64,000 bases of DNA. Source: Patescibacteria group bacterium. GTDB lineage: Bacteria > Patescibacteriota > Minisyncoccia > UBA6257 > JACRHW01. Where the stretch lies: assembly GCA_028865725.1 (NCBI GenBank), contig JAGWJP010000001.1, positions 294,568 to 358,567 of the forward strand. The letters are read 5' to 3'. The position numbers were made by a program, and so were the translations under genes. The notes under the pieces were generated by a model. It was not told the origin of the DNA. It did no database searches and worked only from the letters and a program-made list of their open reading frames with translations. Below are positions 5,915-35,347 of this stretch, one piece after another; within the stretch, counting starts at the first letter, position 1; each line of letters starts with the position of its first letter.

Positions 5915-7432
5915 TTAGGCAAATCCAGGAAAAAAATCTACTTTAATCTGGCGGCGCGGTACTCCCATTTGGTTCAGTATCGCCTCAAATGCAATAACCA
6001 TGGTACGAGGACCCGAGATATAGAAGGTGCATTCACAATAGTCAGGTATCTCTTTTGCAATGATCTCCGCACTGATCGATCGTGTGTAGATACCCGGAAT
6101 CGGACCTTGTTCTGCGGTTACGCTATATACTGTTTTGATTCCTAATTGTTCCCACGCTTCATCAAGGATGGGTTTATAGGCGATATCGGCCACTTTTTTG
6201 TTTGCGTAGAAAAGCGTAATGGGCCTGTGTTCCTGCATATCGATGAGGTATTTGAGCATACTGCGGAATGGAGTAATCCCAATCCCTCCCGCAATGAATA
6301 CCAGTTTTTGCGCCGGGTCGCGCGGAAGCGTAAATTCTCCTGCCAGTTGTGATGCAGTAATGGTGTCTCCTTGTTTCATCGCTGCGAGAGCGCGTTTAAA
6401 ACTGCTTCCCTGCGGATAGAATTTTACCCCTAGACGAATTTCTTGTTCTGTGGGAGAAGAGGCGATCGTGAAGTAACGGCGATTGCCGCGATCATCGGGG
6501 GACGCGTGACTGAGCGTCCACTCGAGATATTGCCCCGGGCGAAAAGAGAATGTGTGATCAGGGCGGAAGATAAAATCATACATGTCGGTTCCTATTTGTT
6601 CTACTGCGCGCAGAGAAAGAAGTAGACGTTCTTTTGGGCTTACTGCATAAGAAAAGATATTACCTGCGAGTAAGGCCAGTTCAGGCGTAAAATAAAATGA
6701 GCCAATGTGTGCAGCGGGCACGAACAAGGCGCCGACAATGGCACCGTAGAGAATGCGCATGGTACGCCCGGGAGGTGTCGTCAATGGTTCTGTGAGCATC
6801 ACAAAAGAAAAAAAGAAGAGTGATGAATGAAGGAGTGTCTGAAGTATTGGATTCAGGATTATTTTCGATGATGACGTGACTATACTTATTCCTAAGGCTA
6901 CTATAATGGCACTAAGAACAAGATCGGTTTTTTGTATTTTACGTACGACGAGAATGCCCCCCAGCACTACAAGCGGAAGAAGAGGAAGATTTCCTCCTAC
7001 CCACCATGTCGCTGATTGATTGATAGCTATTGCGGAGAGCGCTACTGCAAATGCGGCAGGGTTGAAGATGTGTTTTTTTCTGATCGCACAAAGATATTTG
7101 CATGCCATAGACCAGCTTCCCGCAAATATTAAAAATCCCAACCCTGCGGAATTTTGTGCGGTTACAGGAGAGATAATGAGTGCGAGAATGAATGCGGTAA
7201 TATAGACTGATTCTGCATTCTCCTGCGCATGAAAGACGTGAGCAAATACGCGATTTGTTATCCAAGTCACCACGAGAAGGACGATTGTGGAAAAGACGAT
7301 TGCCGTGGGATCATAGGGGAGCACTCCTAGCATGCTGAACAACGTCGCTGCGCCAAGGAGTGCGATAAGATAGTACAGTACCAAGCGATACATGGTGATC
7401 CTGTTAAGTGCGGTATCAATAAATGCGAACAT
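5915..7432 (-). CDS. RnfD/NqrB-like polytopic membrane domain fused to FNR-like FAD/NAD(P)H-binding oxidoreductase domain
   Basis: 505 aa. The N-terminal ~280 aa are multi-TM with FNPAAFA and MLTEPLTTP motifs, similar to the RnfD/NqrB TDP-region. The C-terminal ~220 aa carry FNR signatures: RRYFTIASSP (the RxYS FAD motif), GGIGITPFRSM (the NAD(P) motif) and YISGPRTM. Confidence 0.6.
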   Translation of the reverse strand: MFAFIDTALNRITMYRLVLYYLIALLGAATLFSMLGVLPYDPTAIVFSTIVLLVVTWITNRVFAHVFHAQENAESVYITAFILALIISPVTAQNSAGLGFLIFAGSWSMACKYLCAIRKKHIFNPAAFAVALSAIAINQSATWWVGGNLPLLPLVVLGGILVVRKIQKTDLVLSAIIVALGISIVTSSSKIILNPILQTLLHSSLFFFSFVMLTEPLTTPPGRTMRILYGAIVGALFVPAAHIGSFYFTPELALLAGNIFSYAVSPKERLLLSLRAVEQIGTDMYDFIFRPDHTFSFRPGQYLEWTLSHASPDDRGNRRYFTIASSPTEQEIRLGVKFYPQGSSFKRALAAMKQGDTITASQLAGEFTLPRDPAQKLVFIAGGIGITPFRSMLKYLIDMQEHRPITLFYANKKVADIAYKPILDEAWEQLGIKTVYSVTAEQGPIPGIYTRSISAEIIAKEIPDYCECTFYISGPRTMVIAFEAILNQMGVPRRQIKVDFFPGFA

Positions 7433-7455
7433 GGGTATAATAATTTTTTCCGTTT

Positions 7456-7992
7456 TTAAATTGTGGCAGGTTGGAGCGCGCTTTCTAGTGATTGTTGAAA
7501 TGCCATACTGGTATCAGTGGCACCTGAAACGATATTGACATGTGCATTTTGTGCCTGAATGGCTTCACGTTGCAAGAGAGGCATCGCCTGACTGTTAATG
7601 TAGCGTGATGTGCTTCTGTCATTCGGGTATTGCAGGAATGTGACATTAGTAATTACGCCGTTTTTTATTACGGCTTCCACTTGAACCGTCCCGTAATATG
7701 CATCTACCGGATCGCCTCGATAGGTTCCGTCTTTATATTTGCCATGTTGCGAAGAAAGGGTCGGGGCGGCAGGTTTTGCAGGTTCTGAGGCGGGGAGTGA
7801 TGAGGGGAGGGTAGAAACGGGCGTATTCGTCGTTTCAAGCAATTGCGACCCAGAAGAGACGGCAATTTGCTCCTCCGGTTGGGAAAGAAGGTTGTGAAGT
7901 GCGCGTTCCGGGGTGGTCCCTTTCATATTTACATACAAGGCATAGACGAGCGATGCCCCGATAAACCATATCGAGAGAGTAGTTTTTTTCAT
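7456..7992 (-). CDS. exported FMN-binding domain protein (NqrC/RnfG-like) with covalent-flavinylation motif
   Basis: 178 aa with an N-terminal signal anchor (LSIWFIGASLVYALYV). The FMN_bind domain ends in NIVSGATDTSMAF, which is the [S/T]GA[T/S] ApbE flavinylation site. It sits 23 bp upstream of the RnfD-FNR fusion on the same strand. Confidence 0.6.
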   Translation of the reverse strand: MKKTTLSIWFIGASLVYALYVNMKGTTPERALHNLLSQPEEQIAVSSGSQLLETTNTPVSTLPSSLPASEPAKPAAPTLSSQHGKYKDGTYRGDPVDAYYGTVQVEAVIKNGVITNVTFLQYPNDRSTSRYINSQAMPLLQREAIQAQNAHVNIVSGATDTSMAFQQSLESALQPATI

Positions 7993-19011: not shown

Positions 19012-19767
19012 ATGACCTACAAAGAAACAAGGCTTCTCATGGGAATGCCGATTACTGTAGAAATCGTAGACAAGATGGAAGGTCCTCAGGATATTGAGGA
19101 TGTATTTGCGTACCTTATATATATTGATGAGACGTTTAGTACCTACAAAGACACAAGCGAGATCTCTCGTATCAATCGAGGGGAATTAACGCCAGAAGAA
19201 TATAGTGATGACATGAAGACCGTATTTGCCCTTTCTCAAAGCATGAAGCAATCCACACATGGCTATTTTGATATCATGCGTGGTGATGGCACCTATGATC
19301 CTTCAGGGCTTGTAAAAGGATGGGCCATAGAAGGTGCTGTGGATATTCTTTCAAAAAAAGGTTTCTCAAATTTTTTTGTAGATGCCGGTGGTGATGTGCA
19401 GGTAAGTGGGCACAATGCGCAAGACGTCGATTGGAAGGTTGGAATTAGAAATCCGTTTCATCGCGATGAGATTGTAAAAGTGGTGTCTCTTCACAATGAA
19501 GCCATCGCTACTTCAGGAACCTATATTCGCGGTGCGCACATTTACAACCCGCTCAATCGTAGTGAGAGTCTAAACGATGTTGTGAGTTTGACAGTCATCG
19601 GCCCCACCATATGTGATACGGATTGTTACGCCACTGCTGCGTTTGCAATGGGATACAAAGGGATTCGTTTCATTGAAAATATTCACGGATTTGAGGGCTA
19701 TATGATTGACAAGGAGGGCATGGCAACAATGACAACTGGGTTTGAGCGTTATTGTGTCCCGCATTGA
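19012..19767 (+). CDS. apbE: FAD:protein FMN transferase (ApbE family)
   Basis: The four ApbE signatures are LMGMPITVEI, DPSGLVKGWAIE, DAGGD and AIATSGTYIRG. It has 251 aa and no N-terminal signal peptide or lipobox. Confidence 0.7.
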   Translation: MTYKETRLLMGMPITVEIVDKMEGPQDIEDVFAYLIYIDETFSTYKDTSEISRINRGELTPEEYSDDMKTVFALSQSMKQSTHGYFDIMRGDGTYDPSGLVKGWAIEGAVDILSKKGFSNFFVDAGGDVQVSGHNAQDVDWKVGIRNPFHRDEIVKVVSLHNEAIATSGTYIRGAHIYNPLNRSESLNDVVSLTVIGPTICDTDCYATAAFAMGYKGIRFIENIHGFEGYMIDKEGMATMTTGFERYCVPH

Positions 19768-21724: not shown

Positions 21725-24700
21725 TTGCGTATGAAAAAAATCAATTTATTTTTTGCTGCCGTTTTTATTGTTTCTGCAGCAAGTTTTTTATACGAATCTC
21801 ATAATGTATCTGCATTTACCGTTGCAGGTGCATTTTTACGAGATTCACAATCATTTAACGTGTTGTTCGATGCTGATGTTGCAAGTTCGACCTTCTCGAC
21901 ATCGACGTTGTCGCTGAGTACTTCTACGCTTCAGGCGGTATCAACCTTCCCAGAAAATACTCGAGAAATTTTTGGAAGTGTCTCTGGTACACTCACAACC
22001 GCCGATACGGTAACGGTATCAAGTACGGCACACGATACGTTGGGCAATGCAAACCTTGCCAGTACGACACCGTTTACCTTTTTACCTGCAATTAAAATTG
22101 CTGCGGTTCGTTCTGGAACAACAGGAAATAATCTAAATGAGTTCATCATGTTATATAACACGATGAATCAAAGTTGGAATGCCAGCTCTGCTCTCCATCT
22201 CCACGTGCTTAATGCGAGCGGACACGACAACGTCATTCCGCTTACGTTTGCAACGTCAACTATTCCGGCAAATGGCTTCTTTTTAATTGCGTCTGCCAAT
22301 GGATATGGTGGTACGATATCTCCCGACGCAACGTATAGTTCTTCCACAGATATCTTAGCTACCTCTACTACCGCTATTTTTATAAATTCCACCTCAACTC
22401 CAACTGATGCTTCTTCTATAGGATCGGTTATTGATAAGGTGGAGTGGGGTGCATCGGCTCAAATTGGGTCTTCAGTTTCTTTCTCGTTTGCCACTACGAC
22501 TGCTAGTACAAGCTTACCGCTTGATTATACATTTGTACGCAAGGCATCTTCCGCGTCTACTCCCGTGAGTATGGCCTCTGGTGGATCTGATAGTAATAAA
22601 GGCAATGGATATGATACGAGAGATAATGCGCAAGATTTTGTAATGCTTTCCGGGTCGTTGTCACCTGCGCTCAAAAATTCTGCGAGTCCGAGCGAGTTTG
22701 CGTCCGGAGGAGGGGTGCAGGATGCGACTGTTCCTATTGTTATGGGATCGTTTCCAAGCGGAATGAATGGGGAGATGGTGCCCACGGATCTGCAGTTCGT
22801 TGGATTTGGGTTTAATAAATCAATGGACGGTTCTACTATCACCTCTTCTACTGTTTCATTAGTACAGCAAGGCCAAGCCACTAATATGTGTTCTTCTGTG
22901 AGTTATAGTAATTCATTTAATACCAGTGGACCTCCGGGGCAATGTACAATTCCTGCAGGCGCGCTTATAGCGGGTTCTACCTATGTTTTCACGATCAAGG
23001 GATCGAGCTCAACCCCGAGCGTTCATGATTCTTCTGGTAATGTACTGAATCAACCGAGTGGACAAAATGGAAATGCCAATCATGATTATCAAGTCATCTT
23101 TACTCCTACATCCGGTTTTACTCTTACTCCGCAAACCCCCCCCAGTATTATAGGAAGCTTTCCCGCACCCGGTGCAAATGGAATTCCTACTAATATATCG
23201 AGTATTTCAATTGGTTTTAGTCAAGCAATAGACCCCGCATCACTCTCTGGGGTTACCCTATTGAGGAGCGGAGGCTCTAATGTACTCAATGCGTTAACAC
23301 CAAAACTTTCTTCTGATGGAAAGTCTGCAACAATTCCCGTATCCGCATCTCCCCTTTTAGCGGGAACGACTTATACGCTCACTGTGCCCACGACAGTAAG
23401 AAATAGCAATAACGTAAATTTGCCACAGACGTATACTGCTTCATTTGTTACCGGTGCGTCTGGCGGTGATATGACGGGGCCCCTTGTGTTAGGACATCTT
23501 CCGAACATTGCGACGGGGGTTCCTGTGAACGCCACAGATATTCATCTTTCTACTGATGATGCGTTGAACCCGACTACGATTACTTCCAGTACGGTTCAAA
23601 TTACTGATGCCAACGGCAATCATATTCCTGGCACATTAACTTATGATTCACTTTCTCAGGAGATTGTGTTTGTGGCTGATAATGTATTTCAAACCAACAC
23701 TCTTTATACGGTAACGTTAAACGCAGCAAGTGCAACACCTGTGATCGAAAACGTGGTAGGATTGCCTCTCCAAGATAGTGACGGGAGTAGTGATAATAAA
23801 TATACATTTAGCTTTACCACTTCGGCGTCTCCTGATACGACCCAGCCTGGACTTTTGGTTGCGAATGCAAACACGTTTTCACTTTCTCTTACTTTTGATG
23901 AAGCAGTGAAACAGACAGAGGCAGAGAATATTGCCAATTACGCCCTTACAAGCGGAGGAAATCCTGTAACACTTTCTTCATTTAATGGGAATACTGCATC
24001 GTACGACCTTTCGACGCATACTGTTACCATCAATAATCTTGCGCTTACCGCAGGAGCATCTTTTAGTGTGACGGTTTCCAATGTGCATGATCTTTCAGGG
24101 AATGTTATCGATCCTACAAAGGTAAGTGCTGGTGGTACCGTTCTTGCCCCTACTTTAAATGGGGGTATCATTGGTATGGGTGGCGGATATATTGCCCCTA
24201 CCAACGGCTTGCCTACGGGATTTTCCAGTGGATCATTTGGTTTTGTTCCTCAGGTAGGTGTTCATCCCATGAATACAACTGCGGGATTTACATCTGGGTA
24301 TGCAGTCGATCTTCCTATTTCTACACAAATCCCTGCGTCGGGAAAAATTGTACTTACCTTTCCCAGCTCATTTACGCTGGCCAATGCTATTGCTGACACC
24401 TTTAGTCCCGCCAATAACGATATCAACGGACCAGGTACTGGTACTGTTACGATTGCAAGCGTAGTGGGCGATGATACAGCGCATACAGTTACCGTGACAT
24501 TAGGCGGTACAGGAACCCAATCGAATGGAGGTGATACGCATGACTTTTTGCATTTTGATCTCGCTCAAATCGTCAATCCTACTGTACCTAATACCGCGGA
24601 TGGTTATACGATTGACATACGAACACTAAATGGGTCAAACTCTCTCGAATCTTTTACCTCCATGCCGTTTTTCATAACTTCGGCAGGAAGTAATAGTTTG

Positions 24701-27700
24701 ACAGTAAATCTTACTGCAAGTGGCGCAACAAATGGAACTTCAACGGTATATCTTTTGTCTCCTCAAACAGGTCCTATTTCGAGAGTGTCAACGGCATTTG
24801 TGGGGGCGAGCTCAACCGTTATCTTTTCTGGATTGCAGAGTGGAATGTACGCACTGATGACCGATCCTATTATTACGCTCACCGGAGGAACATTTATTGG
24901 CCAGTCAAATCCGACTCCTGTGAATGTCAATGGAAGCACATCATTTGCTCTTGCGCTTTCTCCTGCAGGTTCGCTTGCTTCAACGACGGTAAGCATTCAT
25001 GCCACAGGAGCAAAAAAGGTTTCTGTATTTGCAGGGGGTCCTAATGGTTATGTTGACACGCCGCTTACCACTTCAAACGGAACGACTACGGTAGCGATTT
25101 ATTATCCTGCAAACGGTGATTATACGGTAGGTGTTGGTCCGCAGATGAGTAAAACGTTCAACGGTCCTCCTCCTGCACCTGATTATGTGATGCCGCAGCC
25201 AGTTCAAGTTCATGTTGCTTCAAATCTTGCTTCACAAACGACACTGAGTTTCGATCTTGTTTCCGCAGGTCTTACGATCGCCGGTTCTGTCAAAGATGGT
25301 TCTGGAAAAGCAATTACAGGTGCAAACGTGTACGCGTATTCCCCGCAGGGAGGATCAGGGACTTTTGGTACCACAGCATCAGACGGTAGCTTTGCATTAA
25401 ATGTTGCCGCGGGAAGTTATGAAGTAGGCGCACGCGCTCCAGGGTTTCCTTCTGGCATTGATACGCCAGTAGTCGTAGATTCTAGTGGCAGCCTCTTTGT
25501 AAATGGCGCTGCAGCATCTTCTTCCTCGGTAACTGTTAAATTAAGCAAGGGCGGTGTGACCATAAGCGGTAAGGTAACAGATGGAACCAATCCTGTTCAA
25601 GGAGCACAAGTGTGGGCATATTGCGACTCGAGCGTAAGTAACAATGCTTGTTTTGGGCCAAATAGCAATGTTTCTGCACAAACGGATTCTTCCGGAGCCT
25701 TTACACTTTATGTCGGCAATGGAACATGGAAGATAGGATCATTTATTCCAGGATATGGCCAACAGCCCATTCTTACCCAGGTTATTTCTGGTTCAAATGT
25801 AACGCTTTCTGATATTAGGCCGTCAGCAACAGGAACATTTGCGACAGTAAGCGGTACGGTGTGTACGAACACCACATCTGATTGTACGAGCGGATCTCCT
25901 TCTGCGGTTTCTGGCGCAATGATAAGAATTCAAGGAACGGACGCAAGTGGAAATTTCTATTCTAATTCTGTAATTTCTGGGAGCGACGGATCATACTCGT
26001 TTGCATCAAGCGTTCCTTCAGGAGCTGGATCAAGCTATCGAGTGCTTGGCAATGTGGCCGGGCTTGGTGAAATTGCGCCAACAGCAAACTTTTCTGTAAC
26101 AGGAAATGTGAGCAATAAAGATCTTGTTTTGAAAGCGGGGCGCACTGTGAATCTCAATGTGAGCAACCCGCCTTCCACCTACGATATGTTCCTTAAATTC
26201 ACAAACACTACCTCTGGAGTAGCTAATTATCTTACGTTGCACAATAATGCTTCAGGAACAATATCGCTTCAGAATGGATCTACCTATGCTATTGATGCGC
26301 GCGCGCAAGGATTTTCTTTCCCTGTTTCTTTGATTACATTGACAGGGGGTACGGCAACCTATTCAACATCGACGGGGCAGCTTGCTCTTAACGGAGGCTC
26401 CTCGGATACCGTTACTCTTAATCTCGCCTTTCCTGCAGCAAATGTGGTAAGCGGTACGGTGAAAGATGGTTCTGGTACGTTATTATCGAATGCCTGGGTT
26501 GATTTTGCCGATCCAACACACGGATCTCACTTTGGAACGCAATCTAATGCAAGTGGCACCTATTCGCTTCCTATTCAGGATGGTTCGTATCAAGTTTCTG
26601 TATATGCGCCGGGATACTTGCCAAACCCAACATCGCTTTCTTTGGATGGAGGCACGATCACACTTGGAAATGCAACAACTTCAGCAAGTACGGTAAACCT
26701 TATCGCGAACAAGTCGAACCTTTTAATTGCGGGTACTATTACTATAGATGGTTCTCCCGCAGCGAATGCGCTGGTAAAAGGTACGCTTTTGGGTGGTAGT
26801 ACAAGTATTGTGACTGCAAACACTGACGGTACATATTCTTTGCCTGTATCGAATGGCAGCTGGACGGTTACTGCTTCTGCAAATGGATATCAAAATAAAG
26901 ATTATGCTTCAACAGTTACCGTGAACGGTTCTTCGGTATCAGGAGTCGATATCAATCTTACTTCTCTTGCTACTCTCGGTAATCCATCAACCCTTTCTAT
27001 CGTGCCTTCTCAAGGCGGAACGCTTCAAAATGCTTCAGGCACGTTGACGATCGCAGTTCCTGCAAATGCATTGAGTACTTCTGCAAACGCTGGTAAACTC
27101 GCAGCAACCGAAACGAGTAATGTGATCAATACTGCTTCTGCAAAAGTTTTTGGAAACGGTGTTGATATCAGCGCGCAAGATTCTTCTAATAATCCGCTTT
27201 CAAGTGGGTTTACCGATAATGTAGTAATTACGATGGATATAGCAAGCTCCTCATTTGCTGCAGATGCCCTTACAAGCACTAGTACGGCAAGCAAGATGGA
27301 ATTGGGATATTTCAAATCCTCACTGAATGACTGGGTCCCCGTTGAGACAACGCTTACGTATGAGGATGCAAATGGTGCTCCTGTAACTGCGGCGAGCGAT
27401 TTGAGCAACGTTGACCATATCAGCCTGTCGGTTCCTACAAAACACTTTACCGTGTTTGGCATAATCACTCCCACCGATGCGCTTGCGCCAAGTGCTCCTA
27501 CTAACGTTTCTGCGACTCAAAGCGGATCTTCTGCGGTGGTGACATGGACTGCACCGACTACGAATTCTGATGGAACTGCGCTTTCCGATTTGCAGGAATA
27601 TGAGATATATCGGGATACAAGCGCAAGCGGGAGTTTTACAACGCAAGTAAATTCAAGCCAAGTAACGGGGACAACATTTACCGATTCCACTGTTTCAGCA

Positions 27701-28234
27701 GGCACCACATATTACTATAAAGTTTCCGCAGCCGATACGAGTGGAAATGAATCTTCAAAGTCATCTGTTTCATCGGGGCTTGCTGTCGCTGCTCTTGTTT
27801 CCGGAGGAGGTTCCTACTCATCTGCTGCCTCTTCAGCAGCAAACCCTGTAGTTACCACTACAAACACAGAAACCTCAACGGTTGAAAATGCAACGCCAAC
27901 TTCTTCTCCCGTTTCTGCTTCTGTAAGTACGGTAACCACCCCAACATCTACGACAGCCCCCCAAGCAGTTTCTTCTACTGCACATGCAGCCGCAACACTT
28001 ACTCGATCGCTTTCTCTCGGCAGCAAAGACTCCGAAGTGACAACCCTTCAAAAACTTCTCGCATCCGATCCGTCACTTTATCCGGAAGGACTCATATCAG
28101 GCTACTTCGGCGCACTTACCAAGAAAGCAGTCATTCGATTCCAAGAAAAATATGGTATCGCGACTGATGCAGCAACAGCCGGACTTGTAGGACCAGAGAC
28201 ACGTGCGAAATTGATGGAGGTGTTAGGAAGATAG
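21725..28234 (+). CDS. giant (2169 aa) cell-surface protein with LTD, Ig-like, CarboxypepD_reg-like, FN3 and peptidoglycan-binding domains
   Basis: Signal/TM segment MRMKKINLFFAAVFIVSAASF. A lamin-tail-like domain spans roughly aa 120-270 (AIKIAAVRSGTTGNNLNEFIMLYNT...GFFLIASANGYG). Multiple Ig-like/Big repeats follow, then four or more CarboxypepD_reg-like repeats (for example GSVKDGSGKAITGANVYAY...SYEVGARAPGF). An FN3 domain follows (PSAPTNVSATQSGSSAVVTWTAP...YYYKVSAADTSGNES). The C-terminus has a PG_binding_1 domain (LSLGSKDSEVTTLQKLL...GYFGALTKKAVIRFQEKYGI). All minus-strand ORFs inside are judged spurious. Confidence 0.8.
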   Translation: MRMKKINLFFAAVFIVSAASFLYESHNVSAFTVAGAFLRDSQSFNVLFDADVASSTFSTSTLSLSTSTLQAVSTFPENTREIFGSVSGTLTTADTVTVSSTAHDTLGNANLASTTPFTFLPAIKIAAVRSGTTGNNLNEFIMLYNTMNQSWNASSALHLHVLNASGHDNVIPLTFATSTIPANGFFLIASANGYGGTISPDATYSSSTDILATSTTAIFINSTSTPTDASSIGSVIDKVEWGASAQIGSSVSFSFATTTASTSLPLDYTFVRKASSASTPVSMASGGSDSNKGNGYDTRDNAQDFVMLSGSLSPALKNSASPSEFASGGGVQDATVPIVMGSFPSGMNGEMVPTDLQFVGFGFNKSMDGSTITSSTVSLVQQGQATNMCSSVSYSNSFNTSGPPGQCTIPAGALIAGSTYVFTIKGSSSTPSVHDSSGNVLNQPSGQNGNANHDYQVIFTPTSGFTLTPQTPPSIIGSFPAPGANGIPTNISSISIGFSQAIDPASLSGVTLLRSGGSNVLNALTPKLSSDGKSATIPVSASPLLAGTTYTLTVPTTVRNSNNVNLPQTYTASFVTGASGGDMTGPLVLGHLPNIATGVPVNATDIHLSTDDALNPTTITSSTVQITDANGNHIPGTLTYDSLSQEIVFVADNVFQTNTLYTVTLNAASATPVIENVVGLPLQDSDGSSDNKYTFSFTTSASPDTTQPGLLVANANTFSLSLTFDEAVKQTEAENIANYALTSGGNPVTLSSFNGNTASYDLSTHTVTINNLALTAGASFSVTVSNVHDLSGNVIDPTKVSAGGTVLAPTLNGGIIGMGGGYIAPTNGLPTGFSSGSFGFVPQVGVHPMNTTAGFTSGYAVDLPISTQIPASGKIVLTFPSSFTLANAIADTFSPANNDINGPGTGTVTIASVVGDDTAHTVTVTLGGTGTQSNGGDTHDFLHFDLAQIVNPTVPNTADGYTIDIRTLNGSNSLESFTSMPFFITSAGSNSLTVNLTASGATNGTSTVYLLSPQTGPISRVSTAFVGASSTVIFSGLQSGMYALMTDPIITLTGGTFIGQSNPTPVNVNGSTSFALALSPAGSLASTTVSIHATGAKKVSVFAGGPNGYVDTPLTTSNGTTTVAIYYPANGDYTVGVGPQMSKTFNGPPPAPDYVMPQPVQVHVASNLASQTTLSFDLVSAGLTIAGSVKDGSGKAITGANVYAYSPQGGSGTFGTTASDGSFALNVAAGSYEVGARAPGFPSGIDTPVVVDSSGSLFVNGAAASSSSVTVKLSKGGVTISGKVTDGTNPVQGAQVWAYCDSSVSNNACFGPNSNVSAQTDSSGAFTLYVGNGTWKIGSFIPGYGQQPILTQVISGSNVTLSDIRPSATGTFATVSGTVCTNTTSDCTSGSPSAVSGAMIRIQGTDASGNFYSNSVISGSDGSYSFASSVPSGAGSSYRVLGNVAGLGEIAPTANFSVTGNVSNKDLVLKAGRTVNLNVSNPPSTYDMFLKFTNTTSGVANYLTLHNNASGTISLQNGSTYAIDARAQGFSFPVSLITLTGGTATYSTSTGQLALNGGSSDTVTLNLAFPAANVVSGTVKDGSGTLLSNAWVDFADPTHGSHFGTQSNASGTYSLPIQDGSYQVSVYAPGYLPNPTSLSLDGGTITLGNATTSASTVNLIANKSNLLIAGTITIDGSPAANALVKGTLLGGSTSIVTANTDGTYSLPVSNGSWTVTASANGYQNKDYASTVTVNGSSVSGVDINLTSLATLGNPSTLSIVPSQGGTLQNASGTLTIAVPANALSTSANAGKLAATETSNVINTASAKVFGNGVDISAQDSSNNPLSSGFTDNVVITMDIASSSFAADALTSTSTASKMELGYFKSSLNDWVPVETTLTYEDANGAPVTAASDLSNVDHISLSVPTKHFTVFGIITPTDALAPSAPTNVSATQSGSSAVVTWTAPTTNSDGTALSDLQEYEIYRDTSASGSFTTQVNSSQVTGTTFTDSTVSAGTTYYYKVSAADTSGNESSKSSVSSGLAVAALVSGGGSYSSAASSAANPVVTTTNTETSTVENATPTSSPVSASVSTVTTPTSTTAPQAVSSTAHAAATLTRSLSLGSKDSEVTTLQKLLASDPSLYPEGLISGYFGALTKKAVIRFQEKYGIATDAATAGLVGPETRAKLMEVLGR

Positions 28235-30384: not shown

Positions 30385-31624
30385 TCATATGAAATACATA
30401 CGAAGAACTTTTTCTCGTGTCGCGAAGGGAAACGTTTTTTTTATCGGATTGCTTAGTTTTTTTGGGGGAATCAGTCAGGACATTTTTGTGCCCGTATTAC
30501 CCCTTTACCTTACGACTGTACTTGGATTCAATAGGGAATTTGTAGGAATCACCGAAGGATTAGTTACGAGCGGCGCTAGTCTTTTTAAGATTGTTGCAGG
30601 ATTTCTTTCTGACCGCGTGCATTTACGAAAGCCTATTGTGTTTGTGGGATATTTCGCTTCGCTTGTGGGGAGAATGTTGCTTGCATTCATCGCGTCTGCA
30701 GGAGGGATTCTGGCACTTCGTTTTCTGGATGGTGCCGGAAAGGGGATTAAGGACCCTTCAAAAGATGCATTGATTGCGGACTCTACACCCAGAGAATCGC
30801 GTGGACGAGGGTTTGGAGTGGTACGTGCACTCGATACGTTTGGATCTGTTGCGGGGCCGTTACTCCTGTTCCTTTTGTTGTATATCTGGAGAGACAATAT
30901 ATTGAAATATCACTACATTTTTTTAGTGACTGCCATTCCGCTTCTTGCCACGCTTGGTATTCTTACGTGGTACGTACGTGAAATTTCCCCTGTACCGAAA
31001 GAGTTGAGTCAAGGAAAGATTCCTGCAAATGCACCACTTGTCTTACCACGGTCTTTTTATTTATTTCTTGTCGTGATGACATTGTTTTCCTTAGGAAATT
31101 CTTCCGACGCGTTTCTTATTTTACGTGCGCGCAATGTAGGGGTTACGTTGCTCGCAGTGCCTCTTGTCTATGCCTTGTTTAACGTAGTTTATGCATCGGC
31201 TTCTATTCCTCTTGGCAGTTTGTCAGATAGGATTGGGCGTGAAAAGGTAATTCTCTTAGGGTGGTTTACATACGGGCTTGCGTATTTAGGATTTGCGTTT
31301 GCTGACCAGAGTTATCAGATTTGGTTGTTGTTTGCCTTTTATGGAATTTACTATGCGACGACTGAGGGGGTAGCAAAAGCATTTGTGGCAGATCTGGTGC
31401 CATCTTCTTCGCGTGGGAGGGCCTATGGGATTTATAACTCGATTATAGGACTTATGGCATTACCCGCCGGTATCATTGCAGGATATCTATGGGACACATT
31501 TAGCCCCGCTACTCCTTTTTTGTTTGGTTCTGGTATTGCGCTCTTTGCGGCAGTTCTGTTGCTGCTTCTTATGCAGTTCTCGCTCCATAACACTTCTGTG
31601 GTGCCAATGAGCGAAGTGAATTAA
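30377..31624 (+). CDS. MFS transporter
   Basis: 12-TM MFS with the motif GFLSDRVHLRKPIVF. The start is probably ATG 30377 or 30389; the track ORF 30326 overlaps the kinase gene. Confidence 0.65.
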   Translation: MNNHMKYIRRTFSRVAKGNVFFIGLLSFFGGISQDIFVPVLPLYLTTVLGFNREFVGITEGLVTSGASLFKIVAGFLSDRVHLRKPIVFVGYFASLVGRMLLAFIASAGGILALRFLDGAGKGIKDPSKDALIADSTPRESRGRGFGVVRALDTFGSVAGPLLLFLLLYIWRDNILKYHYIFLVTAIPLLATLGILTWYVREISPVPKELSQGKIPANAPLVLPRSFYLFLVVMTLFSLGNSSDAFLILRARNVGVTLLAVPLVYALFNVVYASASIPLGSLSDRIGREKVILLGWFTYGLAYLGFAFADQSYQIWLLFAFYGIYYATTEGVAKAFVADLVPSSSRGRAYGIYNSIIGLMALPAGIIAGYLWDTFSPATPFLFGSGIALFAAVLLLLLMQFSLHNTSVVPMSEVN

Positions 31625-31625
31625 A

Positions 31626-31655
31626 AACCCACGGACAGGAACCGTGGTGTTTTTG
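31626..31655 (+). terminator. rho-independent terminator
   Basis: CCCACGG-ACAGGAA-CCGTGGTG followed by TTTTTG. Confidence 0.5.
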
Positions 31656-31719
31656 TATTAGCATATTTTTTGTGAAACAAAGAGCGCGTGCTACAATAAA
31701 AACGGTTAACTATATTTTT

Positions 31720-34104
31720 ATGAACGCAAAACAGGTTTCTATTCCCACTGTTCTTGTTATTTTTGGTGCAACCGGAGATCTTATGGCTCGGAAAATCGCT
31801 CCTGCATTATTTAACCTCTCGCAAAAAGGAAAGCTCCCTGAGAAACTGAGATTTGTAGGGGTAGCGCGAAGAGAGTTGTCCTCCATCGATTTTCGTAAAC
31901 ATTTAAAAGACGCGCTCAAAGGGCGTGTAAAGGGTACTTCAACACAGGTTCATGAGTTTCTTGATATGTTTCTGTACCACCAAGGACTTCTTGATGCGCG
32001 CGAAATGTATATTTCTCTCGCAGAGGTACTCCATAGTATTGATGAAGAGTGGGGTGTGTGCAGTAACAAACTTTTTTATCTCGCGGTTCCTCCGGAGCTT
32101 TACAAAACGATATTCGAACATCTTGCCGCATCAGGGCTTACTATTCCTTGTGGAGGGGATGAAGGGTGGACACGTGTCCTTGTGGAAAAGCCGTTTGGGA
32201 GCGATCTGGCAACCGCAGAGGAACTTGATCGGGTATTGGGTTCCTTGTTCCACGAGAGTCAGATTTACCGCATCGATCATTATCTCGCGAAAGAAATGAT
32301 ACAGAATATTCTCGCATTTCGTTTTTCCAACAATCTTTTTGAAGAGAGCTGGGATGCGCACCACATTGAACGTATCGACATACGACTGTTCGAGACGCTC
32401 GGGGTAGAGGAGCGCGGAATGTTTTATGATCACGTGGGCGCATTGGTGGATGTGGGACAAAACCATCTCTTGCAGATGCTCGCGCTTATTGCGATGGACC
32501 CCCCTACTTCTCTCGGCGCGGAGAGCGTGCGAAAAGCGCGCGCACATATTTTAGAGAGTTTGCATCCAATGTCTTCTCGCGATATCCAGTATGCCACCTT
32601 TCGTGGCCAGTATAGGGGGTATTTGGACATTAAAGGCGTGCGTCCTCGCTCTACCACGGAGACATTTTTTAAGATTATTACGACACTTGATCATCCGCGC
32701 TGGGGATCTGTTCCATTTGTGCTGGAAGGCGGGAAAGGGATGGCGGAACAGCGAAAAGAGATTGTGGTTACGTTTCGTCACCCCACCCCGTGTTTGTGTC
32801 CCCCTCTGCAACACTACAAAAATAAGGTTATTATCTCGCTCGAGCCTCATGAAAGTATTGTGATTCAATTTTGGTCTAAGAAACCAGGATTTGATTTTCA
32901 AATGGAAGAACGCACCTTTGATTTCTTTTTGCGTGATGCGAAGGTGAGATCTCAGTATGTAGAAGAGTATGAAAAATTGCTTCTTGATTGTATCGCGGGA
33001 GATCAAACGTTGTTTGTAAGTACCGATGAGGTGCGTGCGATGTGGAGGTTTATTGATCCTATCGTAGCTGCATGGCGCGGTGAAAAAACGGTGCCCGTTG
33101 TTTCTTATACGCGCGGATCGAATGAGGCGGCAGAAAAGTCGGTTGTGCTTGAGAAGTCTTTGCTTCCTGTAACACTAAAGCATAAAGAAGTTGCGATTGT
33201 GGGATTGGGAAAAATGGGTGGAAATATTGCGCGCCAGCTTTTGCGGAAGGGGTGGCATGTCACAGGGTTTAATCGCTCGCGTGAGGCGACTGACGCACTC
33301 ACGAAGGAAGGGCTTTGTGGCGTGTATGAGGCAAAAAATCTTTTCGATACGCTTCACGCTCCTCGTATCTTCTGGTTTATGCTGCCGTCGCGCGAAACAG
33401 GGAATATCGCACCCATCGACGGGATATTATTTGGGAAAAATGGAATTGCAGCACAGCTTCGCAAAGGCGATATTGTGATTGATGGCGCAAACGCGTTTTA
33501 TAAGGATTCGATACGCCGCTATCGCGCGCTCAAAAAGCGTGGGGTAGGGTTTCTTGACGTAGGTGTTTCAGGTGGCCCTCAAGGCGCACTCCGTGGCGCA
33601 TCGCTCATGATTGGGGGTGATCGTGAAGTGTTTCTGCGCGCAGAGCCACTGTTTCGTGATATTGCGGAGTTGGGTGCCTACCAATTCTTCGAAGGCGCAG
33701 GTGCGGGACATTTTGTGAAGATGGTACACAACGGCATTGAGTACGGAATGATGCAGGCCTTGGCAGAAGGGTTTGCGATTATGAAGGCTTCGAAGTACCA
33801 CCTCGATCTTACTCGTGTTGCTGATGTCTACAACCATGGCAGTGTGATAGAGTCACGTCTTGTGGGTTGGTTGAAACAAGGGTTTATTACCTATGGCGAG
33901 GATCTTCGTAGTGTTTCAGGGACGGTGGGGCATACCGGTGAGGGGGCATGGACTGTTGAGACCGCAAAAGAACTGAAGGTGCAGGTAAAGATTATTGAGG
34001 GCGCGCTCCAGTTTCGCAAACAGTCCGCAAAGAACCCAAGTTATACAGGAAAGATTCTTAGCATGATTCGTAACCAGTTCGGAGGACACAGTATTAGTAG
34101 TTAG
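31720..34104 (+). CDS. zwf: fused glucose-6-phosphate 1-dehydrogenase / 6-phosphogluconate dehydrogenase (decarboxylating, short form)
   Basis: The N-terminal ~480 aa carry VIFGATGDLMARKIAPALFNL (the G6PD NADP fold), RIDHYLAKEMIQNILAFRFSN (the G6PD active-site motif) and a G6PD C-terminal domain. The C-terminal ~300 aa carry VAIVGLGKMGGNIARQL, GVSGGPQGALRGASLMIGG and GAGHFVKMVHNGIEYGMMQ (6PGDH/Gnd-like). The start is preferred at ATG 31720. Confidence 0.75.
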   Translation: MNAKQVSIPTVLVIFGATGDLMARKIAPALFNLSQKGKLPEKLRFVGVARRELSSIDFRKHLKDALKGRVKGTSTQVHEFLDMFLYHQGLLDAREMYISLAEVLHSIDEEWGVCSNKLFYLAVPPELYKTIFEHLAASGLTIPCGGDEGWTRVLVEKPFGSDLATAEELDRVLGSLFHESQIYRIDHYLAKEMIQNILAFRFSNNLFEESWDAHHIERIDIRLFETLGVEERGMFYDHVGALVDVGQNHLLQMLALIAMDPPTSLGAESVRKARAHILESLHPMSSRDIQYATFRGQYRGYLDIKGVRPRSTTETFFKIITTLDHPRWGSVPFVLEGGKGMAEQRKEIVVTFRHPTPCLCPPLQHYKNKVIISLEPHESIVIQFWSKKPGFDFQMEERTFDFFLRDAKVRSQYVEEYEKLLLDCIAGDQTLFVSTDEVRAMWRFIDPIVAAWRGEKTVPVVSYTRGSNEAAEKSVVLEKSLLPVTLKHKEVAIVGLGKMGGNIARQLLRKGWHVTGFNRSREATDALTKEGLCGVYEAKNLFDTLHAPRIFWFMLPSRETGNIAPIDGILFGKNGIAAQLRKGDIVIDGANAFYKDSIRRYRALKKRGVGFLDVGVSGGPQGALRGASLMIGGDREVFLRAEPLFRDIAELGAYQFFEGAGAGHFVKMVHNGIEYGMMQALAEGFAIMKASKYHLDLTRVADVYNHGSVIESRLVGWLKQGFITYGEDLRSVSGTVGHTGEGAWTVETAKELKVQVKIIEGALQFRKQSAKNPSYTGKILSMIRNQFGGHSISS

Positions 34105-34290: not shown

Positions 34291-34372
34291 AAGCACTAAT
34301 TACTAAGCACTAATTACTCTCGTTACGTTCTCGTTTGTGATAACTAACACACTAACAAACTCAACAATGATG
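34291..34372 (+). promoter_or_regulatory. conserved upstream element (tandem 14-bp duplication plus a shared motif pair), also present upstream of rseP at about 63561..63612
   Basis: Perfect tandem AAGCACTAATTACT x2 at 34291-34318. The block ACTAATTACTCTCGTTACGTTC is followed by the 12-mer ACTAACAAACTC, ending 4 nt before the ATG at 34367. The same 12-mer and a 26-mer with 4 mismatches occur 4 nt before the rseP start. Confidence 0.4.
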
Positions 34373-35347
34373 TACGACGCAATACAAAACTTTTCAAAAC
34401 AATTTGAGTACGAGCCGGTGGTTGAAAATGCGGATTTCTTACCGCGCGCAACAACATTTGTGGTGGTAGGAATGGGGGGCTCTCATCTTGCCGCGGATCT
34501 TATTCGTGCCTGGAAACCTGATGCAAACATTGTGGTGCATCGTGATTACGGGCTTCCTTCTATCGCGCGTAGTGAGGAGCGTGATGTGCTTGTGGTCATA
34601 AGCTCCTATTCGGGAAATACCGAAGAAGTGCTTGATGCACTCCATGTGGCTCGTGCCGAGGACTTTCCTGTGGCAGTGATTGCAAAAGGCGGCAAGCTTT
34701 TGGAAGAGGCGTATGCGAATACTTTTCCGTATGTAAAACTTCCTGATATGGATTTGCAGCCTCGGCTTGCAATAGGGCTTAGTATGCTGGGGCTTTTGGC
34801 GCTTATGGGGGATACAGAAGGAGTGCGTGAAGTGCAGCGACTTGCTGCTTCGTTACGTCCTAATGACTGGGAGGAGAAGGGAAAACAGTATGCCGAGATG
34901 CTTTACGGGCGCATACCACTTATCTACGCGTCCACGCGTAATACCGCACTTGCCTATATTTGGAAAATTACTCTCAACGAAACAGGCAAGATCCCCGCGT
35001 TTTATAACGTATTTCCCGAATTGAATCACAATGAGATGACCGGATTTGATATCGCGGCTTCTACACATGAGCTTAGCAAGCTCTTTGCGTGCGTGATGCT
35101 AAAAGACGAGACTGACGATGTGCGTATCATCCGTCGTATTAAGATTACCGAGCGGTTGTATCATGACCGCGCTATCCCTGCACATACGATCGTATTTCCT
35201 GGGGAATCACGCATTTATTCTCTTTTCTCACTTATCGTACTCATAGAATGGGTGGCCTATTATATTGCCACACGCTACGATCGCGATCCTGAAGAAGTTC
35301 CCATGATCGAAGAATTCAAACGAAACATCGCAGATAACCGTTCATAG
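34367..35347 (+). CDS. bifunctional phosphoglucose/phosphomannose isomerase (SIS domain, archaeal-type PGI/PMI)
   Basis: The N-terminus MMYDAIQNFSKQF and the SIS P-loop VVGMGGSHLAA match the PGI/PMI family. The protein is about 326 aa. The track start at 34337 is GTG inside the conserved upstream motif. Confidence 0.6.
   Translation: MMYDAIQNFSKQFEYEPVVENADFLPRATTFVVVGMGGSHLAADLIRAWKPDANIVVHRDYGLPSIARSEERDVLVVISSYSGNTEEVLDALHVARAEDFPVAVIAKGGKLLEEAYANTFPYVKLPDMDLQPRLAIGLSMLGLLALMGDTEGVREVQRLAASLRPNDWEEKGKQYAEMLYGRIPLIYASTRNTALAYIWKITLNETGKIPAFYNVFPELNHNEMTGFDIAASTHELSKLFACVMLKDETDDVRIIRRIKITERLYHDRAIPAHTIVFPGESRIYSLFSLIVLIEWVAYYIATRYDRDPEEVPMIEEFKRNIADNRS

Follow-up and report, generated by a model that had tools for sequence, protein, structure and literature searches.

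A fused gene of Patescibacteria predicted to encode both glucose-6-phosphate dehydrogenase and short-chain 6-phosphogluconate dehydrogenase

The DNA analysed here is a 64,000-nucleotide stretch from a Patescibacteria group bacterium (GenBank assembly GCA_028865725.1, contig JAGWJP010000001.1, positions 294,568 to 358,567), referred to below as the window. On its plus strand, one open reading frame (ORF) joins a glucose-6-phosphate dehydrogenase (G6PD, encoded by zwf) to a short-chain 6-phosphogluconate dehydrogenase (6PGDH, encoded by gnd). The stop-free single ORF spans 31672–34104 and would yield 810 amino acids from a GTG codon or 794 from the ATG at 31720, which is the start given in GenBank. 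The ATG is the more likely start, because homologues begin there and because the upstream GTG falls within a promoter-like site (31670–31697). The 794-residue form is 100% identical to a GenBank protein (P0001, 'MAG: glucose-6-phosphate dehydrogenase [Patescibacteria group bacterium]', MAG standing for metagenome-assembled genome) from contig JAGWUQ010000001.1 of assembly GCA_028868355.1; the same protein is thus present on two contigs. The fused gene is laid out as follows:

31720–34104, plus strand: zwf::gnd fused gene, 794 amino acids plus stop; bifunctional G6PD and short-chain 6PGDH, as predicted from sequence
31756–33156, plus strand: G6PD module (G6PD_N 31756–32307; G6PD_C 32311–33156)
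33157–33189, plus strand: inter-enzyme linker (...KSLLPVTLKHKE...), the gap between the Pfam domains; about 10–20 residues
33190–34101, plus strand: short-chain 6PGDH module (NAD_binding_2 33190–33669; single 6PGD hemi-domain 33706–34035)

An earlier note on this DNA had called for a Pfam scan, which recovers all four of the domains it named. Numbered on the 810-residue form, these are G6PD_N (residues 29–212, E=1.7e-56, profile positions 1–183 of 183), G6PD_C (residues 214–495, E=5.1e-82, positions 1–290 of 296), NAD_binding_2 (residues 507–666, E=5.5e-40) and 6PGD (PF00393; residues 679–788, E=6.3e-18), the last covering profile positions 1–116 of 290 and hence one hemi-domain. Against the NCBIfam models, the protein scores 479.2 bits for TIGR00871 (zwf; curated equivalog cutoff 400.6), 316.5 bits for TIGR00872 (gnd_rel; curated equivalog cutoff 297.2) and 316.1 bits for NF007161 (cutoff 271). 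One ORF passes both equivalog cutoffs, which bears out the proposal that a complete G6PD and a Gnd/YqeC-type short-chain 6PGDH share a single polypeptide. The fused protein gave no match at E<0.01 to the 6-phosphogluconolactonase domain (PF01182, Glucosamine_iso).

The best solved relative of the G6PD half is 9emm (6e-99), with the human and Leuconostoc enzymes also among the closest, while the closest solved relatives of the C-terminal half are the short-chain 6PGDHs 8ihe, 10gw/6xeq, 6vpb and 4e21. An AlphaFold monomer model built from 120 homologues has a mean pLDDT of 88.3 and a pTM of 0.74, with pLDDT falling to 69 at the linker (residue block 481–490). The G6PD half of the model superposes on 1dpg and on human G6PD with TM scores of 0.85–0.90 (Foldseek). 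A fold search of the PDB returned no chain spanning both halves.

NAD_binding_2 is common to the whole β-hydroxyacid dehydrogenase superfamily, and the C-terminal module also gives weak matches to NAD_binding_11 and to the models for 3-hydroxyisobutyrate dehydrogenase (HIBADH) and tartronate-semialdehyde reductase (TSR). It could accordingly be a different enzyme of that superfamily, a possibility that the earlier note had itself raised, and the protein would then not cover two pentose-phosphate steps. The scores run the other way: HIBADH, TSR and similar models reach 54–85 bits against cutoffs of 290–450 (TIGR01692, 64.3 versus 291.6; TIGR01505, 84.9 versus 340.75), and NAD_binding_11 stays below threshold (20 versus 30), whereas the module clears the cutoffs of TIGR00872 and NF007161 with 316 bits. 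The PF00393 domain, the catalytic Lys/His/Asn/Glu block and the 6PGDH-specific RX2FGXH tail are all there. Because the competing models score so far under their cutoffs, we conclude that the module is not another β-hydroxyacid dehydrogenase and regard that assignment as extremely improbable.

The active-site and cofactor motifs of the two halves are found at the following positions:

31765–31782, plus strand: GATGDL, G6PD half
31858–31875, plus strand: ARR, G6PD half, NADP-type Arg-Arg
32185–32199, plus strand: EKPFG, G6PD half
32269–32295, plus strand: RIDHYLAKE, G6PD active-site motif
32455–32472, plus strand: GQNHLL(Q), G6PD catalytic His, xQNHxxQ helix
33202–33225, plus strand: GLGKMGGN, 6PGDH Rossmann motif
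33268–33285, plus strand: FNRSRE, 6PGDH half, N-R-S triplet
33565–33579, plus strand: VSGGP, 6PGDH half, with the Ser of SGG
33700–33756, plus strand: GAGHFVKMVHNGIEYGMMQ, 6PGDH half
33712–33747, plus strand: FVKMVHNGIEYG, 6PGDH catalytic block with Lys and Glu (sheep K183 and E190) and His/Asn
34069–34089, plus strand: RNQFGGH (RX2FGXH motif), C-terminus of the 6PGDH half

RIDHYLAKE, GLGKMGGN and the longer 33700–33756 segment are the three that the earlier note had quoted, and all three are present. Across 72 aligned loci, four G6PD residues, namely Asp, His and Lys in RIDHYLxK and His in QNH, are invariant (72/72), as are the catalytic Lys, His, Asn, Glu and Ser of 6PGDH (72/72) and the substrate-binding residues of both halves. 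The 6PGDH motifs FVKMVHNGIEYG, VSGGP and RNQFGGH likewise do not vary among these loci.

An N-R-T/S triplet forms the NADP 2'-phosphate site in sheep and Escherichia coli 6PGDH, and ARR is the usual NADP-type arrangement in G6PD. We infer from the N-R-S and ARR motifs that both modules probably use NADP+. The product name of TIGR00872 contains 'NAD(+)-dependent', which we did not adopt for the 6PGDH module, as its N-R-S motif argues for NADP. Alignments place an Asp at the equivalent Rossmann position in 8IHE (Gnd2) and in 10GW/6XEQ; Asp at the 2'-phosphate position is the NAD-preferring arrangement.

These structures belong to the stand-alone short-chain tetrameric 6PGDHs, known from Gluconobacter oxydans (10GW), Gluconacetobacter diazotrophicus (6XEQ/6VPB) and Mycobacterium tuberculosis (Gnd2; 8IHE/9IJB). 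The C-terminal module shares with them a length of about 300 amino acids, a single hemi-domain, the catalytic KMVHNGIEY block and the RX2FGXH tail; unlike theirs, its N-terminus is tethered to a 480-residue G6PD. In the tetrameric enzymes, RX2FGXH lies on the C-terminal helix and tail with which one subunit covers the substrate of its neighbour (bioRxiv 10.64898/2026.01.21.700892). The order G6PD→6PGDH would keep this tail free for donation to the neighbouring active site, and the free C-terminus is compatible with a homotetramer whose tails close one another's active sites.

A separate observation concerns four cysteines of the G6PD half. Cys114, Cys144, Cys358 and Cys360 of the 794-residue protein (codons 32059–32061, 32149–32151, 32791–32793 and 32797–32799, in the contexts WGVC, xPC and PCLCP) are near-invariant in G6PDs of the type found in the candidate phyla radiation (CPR), whether fused or unfused. 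Non-CPR relatives never have Cys at three of these four positions, and have it at the Cys114 position in 8 of 37 cases. Together the four residues may bind a metal or act as a redox switch.

The fusion recurs widely. In a search space of 5.8 billion proteins, with relatives counted as 90%-identity clusters, the best 120 relatives are all fused proteins of 773–848 amino acids that carry all four domains and are 55–67% identical to the query; their sources are assemblies from NCBI, JGI, ENA and Logan. When representatives at 50% identity were searched exhaustively, roughly 12–18 fused clusters emerged, down to 38% identity. The search for the same architecture that the earlier note had suggested thus reveals a bacterial version that is abundant in public data. 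We also surveyed 80 loci, taking one genome per GTDB species and checking ORF continuity at each locus, with the following outcome:

Fused loci: 22 of 80 (19 complete, 3 partial yet spanning the junction)
Separate neighbouring genes in the order zwf→gnd (CPR): 16
Separate neighbouring genes in the order gnd→zwf (non-CPR): 37

These data bear on whether a sequencing or assembly error could have deleted the stop codon between two separate neighbouring genes. Such an error would be easy to make: other CPR genomes hold unfused zwf→gnd pairs with gaps of 0–15 nucleotides, and one pair (L004, described below) is a single stop codon away from fusion, so that a one-base error could mimic it. It would, however, have had to recur in at least 120 independent fused clusters that come from four data sources and are only 55–67% identical, and in the 22 fused GTDB loci, high-GC copies among them, as well as on both contigs that carry the present protein. 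The junction (33136–33210, KSVVLEKSLLPVTLKHKEVAIVGLG) is collinear with 119 independent fused homologues, which argues against a frameshift or read-through artefact, and the junction DNA of the window contains no stop codon and no homopolymer run. The fused ORF is not a sequencing artefact. The read-through of two genes against which the earlier note had warned is effectively refuted, and we leave it next to no probability.

Two apparent fusions in the reverse order, L053 (826 amino acids) and L058 (838 amino acids), were discarded, since translation shows them to be out-of-frame read-through in high-GC DNA. In an Armatimonadota MAG (L054:7688–10906), a 6PGDH-like region closes an open stretch of about 1,070 amino acids, which could be another fusion or only high-GC read-through.

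A fused gene might still give two ordinary enzymes, if the linker were cleaved or if the 6PGDH had an internal start. Some diatom fusion enzymes may be cleaved post-translationally (Kroth 2008, PMC2173943), the linker is poorly conserved and has a lower pLDDT, and a GTG codon stands at the start of the 6PGDH Rossmann strand. The sequence shows neither a conserved motif for cleavage nor a ribosome-binding signal for an internal start, however. In two alignments the linker varies in sequence across the fused family but is similar in length, and this length has been retained over deep divergence. A stop codon, moreover, would be easily regained if separate proteins were wanted. Two separate products are therefore very unlikely.

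The separate genes of other genomes show how the fusion arose. Orthologues that are 37–55% identical form zwf→gnd(→pgl) operons in CPR genomes and gnd→zwf→pgl operons in Chloroflexota, Bacteroidota, Chlorobiota and Nitrosomonas, pgl being the gene for 6-phosphogluconolactonase. These operons link the two dehydrogenases as tightly as the fusion does, but as two polypeptides. In every one of the 16 unfused CPR pairs the genes adjoin or overlap. L004 (4921–4980), from a Parcubacteria MAG, has zwf in frame with gnd, and only TAG plus three codons stand between them (…ASVIV*RRTMQKTIGIIGLGKMG); the pair is therefore one substitution short of fusion, and could represent either an intermediate on the way from separate to fused genes or a recent split. 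We made neighbour-joining trees for the two halves separately and for their concatenate; in these trees, which carry no bootstrap values and are only indicative, a single large clade of fused genes emerges from among the unfused CPR pairs.

Four fused genes from Coriobacteriia or Actinomycetes MAGs with a GC content of 64–69% (L011, L012, L015 and L017) are monophyletic and nest within the fused CPR clade. Another fused gene (L085:7370–9742) shares its contig with genes for fibrillarin and Nop56/58; these archaeal markers assign the contig, by its gene content, to a DPANN archaeon. The nested position of the high-GC group, together with this contig, indicates that the fused gene has moved horizontally, also between domains.

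Gene order outside the CPR is the opposite. All 37 non-CPR loci (Chloroflexota, Bacteroidota, Chlorobiota, Ignavibacteria, Nitrosomonas and others) have gnd→zwf, and none of the 37 is fused. In L045–L083 the two genes are tightly linked as gnd→zwf(→pgl), often touching or overlapping. This contrast would fit a structural constraint, as the RX2FGXH tail stays free only when G6PD comes first. The family thereby offers a clean natural series, from separate genes through an in-frame stop to a fusion, set against an opposite order that never fuses, and should be useful for studying the constraints on gene fusion.

Taken together, the sequence evidence makes it highly probable that the gene encodes a bifunctional G6PD and short-chain 6PGDH, derived from a fused CPR zwf→gnd pair that was selected and spread. 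The comparison of loci shows that a stop codon was lost between the same-strand neighbours zwf and gnd in CPR/Patescibacteria, and that the fused gene was then retained under selection over a large clade and passed on to some Coriobacteriia and DPANN archaea. In the protein, the N-terminal G6PD is predicted to convert glucose-6-phosphate (G6P) to 6-phosphoglucono-δ-lactone with formation of NADPH. Hydrolysis of the lactone, for which the fused protein has no domain, would be spontaneous or rely on an enzyme encoded elsewhere, and the C-terminal 6PGDH would convert 6-phosphogluconate to ribulose-5-phosphate and CO2 with formation of a second NADPH. The protein would thus provide steps 1 and 3 of the oxidative branch, for a net yield of two NADPH and one ribulose-5-phosphate per G6P. 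The most likely benefits of the fusion are a fixed 1:1 expression, the co-assembly of two NADPH-producing steps and regulatory economy in a minimal genome; proximity may also aid the local capture of 6-phosphogluconate.

Several points weigh against this reading. The two fused steps are not consecutive, so classical substrate channelling is not the main rationale, and simple channelling cannot be the whole of it. The trees are neighbour-joining trees without bootstrap, and a few unfused pairs fall inside the fused clade, where they could reflect fissions, repeated fusions or assembly frameshifts. The sole departure from the canonical catalytic motifs is the replacement of Gly by Ala in RIDHYLGKE, seen here and in 26 of 35 CPR relatives. 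The promoter and terminator calls given below are pattern matches only. For every member of the family, finally, activities and cofactor preference are deduced from the primary structure.

A fusion of this type has a published precedent, contrary to the suggestion in the earlier note that a G6PD–6PGDH fusion had not been described. Kroth 2008 (PMC2173943) reported such a protein from the diatom Phaeodactylum tricornutum, and it was rediscussed later, when no other example was present in nr (Stover 2011, PMC3148214). The bacterial architecture, with an N-terminal G6PD and a C-terminal 6PGDH in one frame with a short spacer, matches the published description. The diatom protein (54663, XP_002183714.1) contains the same two enzymes in the same order, G6PD first, with a short spacer of 13 codons; it likewise skips the lactonase step and, like the bacterial family, is annotated inconsistently. 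It differs in being eukaryotic and reportedly restricted to one diatom lineage, and later annotation has questioned its status as a real fusion. The bacterial family is likely to be independent in origin, because the CPR family has its own zwf→gnd operon precursor.

The better-known fusions of G6PD to 6-phosphogluconolactonase (6PGL), namely Plasmodium GluPho, the enzymes of Giardia and Trichomonas and metazoan H6PD, share the rationale of co-expression or channelling. Their partner is the lactonase and therefore the next step, whereas the partner in the bacterial fusion is a dehydrogenase two steps on, and Glucosamine_iso is absent. One G6PD::6PGL protein (P0244; 768 amino acids; G6PD_N, G6PD_C and Glucosamine_iso) was met in the 50%-identity search. 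Full-text literature searches found no description of a prokaryotic G6PD–6PGDH family, and a term search of the main paper on CPR metabolism (PMC7304191) found no mention of the fusion. The fusion type is thus known from a diatom, while the prokaryotic family, large and of its own origin, appears undescribed.

GenBank names the fused protein by its N-terminal half only, because NCBIfam contains no bifunctional model. Hundreds of database entries, the present one among them, are called only "glucose-6-phosphate dehydrogenase", and one relative (P0009) has the name 'phosphogluconate dehydrogenase' alone; annotation systematically overlooks the second activity. As a consequence, metabolic reconstructions that tally genes by name may record 6PGDH, and the oxidative pentose-phosphate branch with it, as lacking in many genomes of CPR, DPANN and Coriobacteriia. 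Since the enzymes, the chemistry and the notion of such a fusion were already established, the finding is a moderate rather than a transformative one. Its main value is threefold: the annotation can be corrected, the evolution of a fusion is seen in a clean example, and lactonase-independent flux becomes a question that can be tested.

The lactonase step itself deserves closer consideration. No lactonase domain (PF01182, or PF10282 of the YbhE type) is found in the called genes of the 64-kb window. We recognised the CPR lactonase by its position in unfused loci (PF01182), built a hidden Markov model (HMM) from it and ran this on all loci and on the window, where it returned nothing at E<10. 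By domain and HMM search alike, the claim that no lactonase gene is adjacent therefore holds. In separate operons the lactonase is often the third gene; counted as adjacency at the locus, which differs from genome content, its occurrence is as follows:

Fused loci: pgl adjacent in 0 of 22
Unfused CPR loci: pgl adjacent in 7 of 16, usually directly after gnd
Non-CPR loci: pgl adjacent in 19 of 37, after zwf

The difference between fused and unfused CPR loci is real at the level of adjacency (Fisher's exact p=0.0009), but the association has phylogeny as a confounder: the pgl-linked loci make up the basal CPR clade.

These counts, and the lack of pgl in the window, could be taken to mean that the fusion is an adaptation to lactonase-free life, in which the tethered 6PGDH or a latent hydrolytic capacity stands in for 6-phosphogluconolactonase. 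Work on E. coli Δpgl lends this some force, having argued that spontaneous intracellular hydrolysis alone is insufficient to sustain flux (bioRxiv 10.1101/2023.11.29.569206). Yet the pgl statistic carries both of the limits just given, the fused protein has no extra domain or insert able to act as a hydrolase, and proximity cannot accelerate a spontaneous chemical step. In addition, two fused loci have a candidate alternative hydrolase nearby. On balance, we consider such an adaptation unlikely.

In several CPR loci, the gene directly after gnd or the fused gene encodes a 'putative cyclase' or arylformamidase-like protein of about 205 amino acids (PF04199), which scores 136–147 bits for TIGR03035, below its cutoff of 223. 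It was found at these positions:

L024:5430–6065, L031:1360–1974, L032:12376–12996 and L036:12563–13189
L040:12555–13205, L043:12196–12822 and L009:14169–14795

The gene occupies the slot that pgl holds elsewhere in the CPR, and no locus has both; the window contains no homologue. As an idea only, this metal-dependent hydrolase may be a non-orthologous replacement of the lactonase. A more far-reaching scheme would make the fused enzyme the core of a lactonase-free oxidative pentose-phosphate module: covalent coupling would let ultra-small symbionts (CPR bacteria and DPANN archaea) and some Coriobacteriia drop 6-phosphogluconolactonase, the module would spread between domains as a single gene, and the cyclase-like hydrolase might replace the lactonase in part of the clade. 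We think this scheme unlikely. With this family, nonetheless, nature provides a test of whether the oxidative branch can operate in a cell that lacks a lactonase.

Four features flank the fused gene:

30389–31624, plus strand: major facilitator superfamily (MFS) transporter, upstream (MFS_1, E=2.7e-47)
31629–31647, plus strand: terminator-like hairpin after the upstream MFS gene, from a pattern scan only
31670–31697, plus strand: promoter-like site with an extended −10, from a pattern scan only
34367–35347, plus strand: bifunctional phosphoglucose/phosphomannose isomerase, directly downstream (bact-PGI_C, E=2.1e-39)

The hairpin and the promoter-like site suggest, weakly, that the fused gene may have its own promoter; the evidence is weak because such sites are no more numerous than expected from shuffled sequence. 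The downstream isomerase scores 205.7 for TIGR02128, just under the cutoff of 213.9, and could supply the fused enzyme with G6P from fructose-6-phosphate. This adjacency recurs in only three other loci (L019, L020 and L030), and the MFS and ASCH neighbours recur in none or one. A link of the MFS transporter to sugar uptake is possible. As the neighbourhood is not conserved, we claim no operon and propose only the isomerase as a plausible functional neighbour.

At other CPR loci, a ROK-family sugar kinase gene lies just downstream of the zwf–gnd(–pgl/cyclase) cluster (L025:12307–13125, L030:13595–14458, L032:13009–13842, L034:7042–7875 and L037:12676–13593). According to the main paper on CPR metabolism (PMC7304191), ROK proteins could not be confirmed as glucokinases; the linkage to zwf–gnd is a hint in favour of a putative glucokinase role.

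Further away in the window, a 2,167-residue protein (21725–28234, plus strand) with Big_5, several CarboxypepD_reg and PG_binding_1 domains is encoded upstream of genes for a response regulator and a PAS histidine kinase. Giant cell-surface proteins are common in CPR genomes, and this is probably one of them; L006 has a 2,200-residue relative near its fused gene. On the minus strand (5915–7992), a 505-residue protein with weak matches to NQR2_RnfD_RnfE and NAD_binding_1 adjoins an FMN_bind protein, and the gene for an ApbE flavin transferase is not far away (19012–19767, plus strand); together they make up a small flavin-based membrane redox set, which is unusual for a CPR genome.

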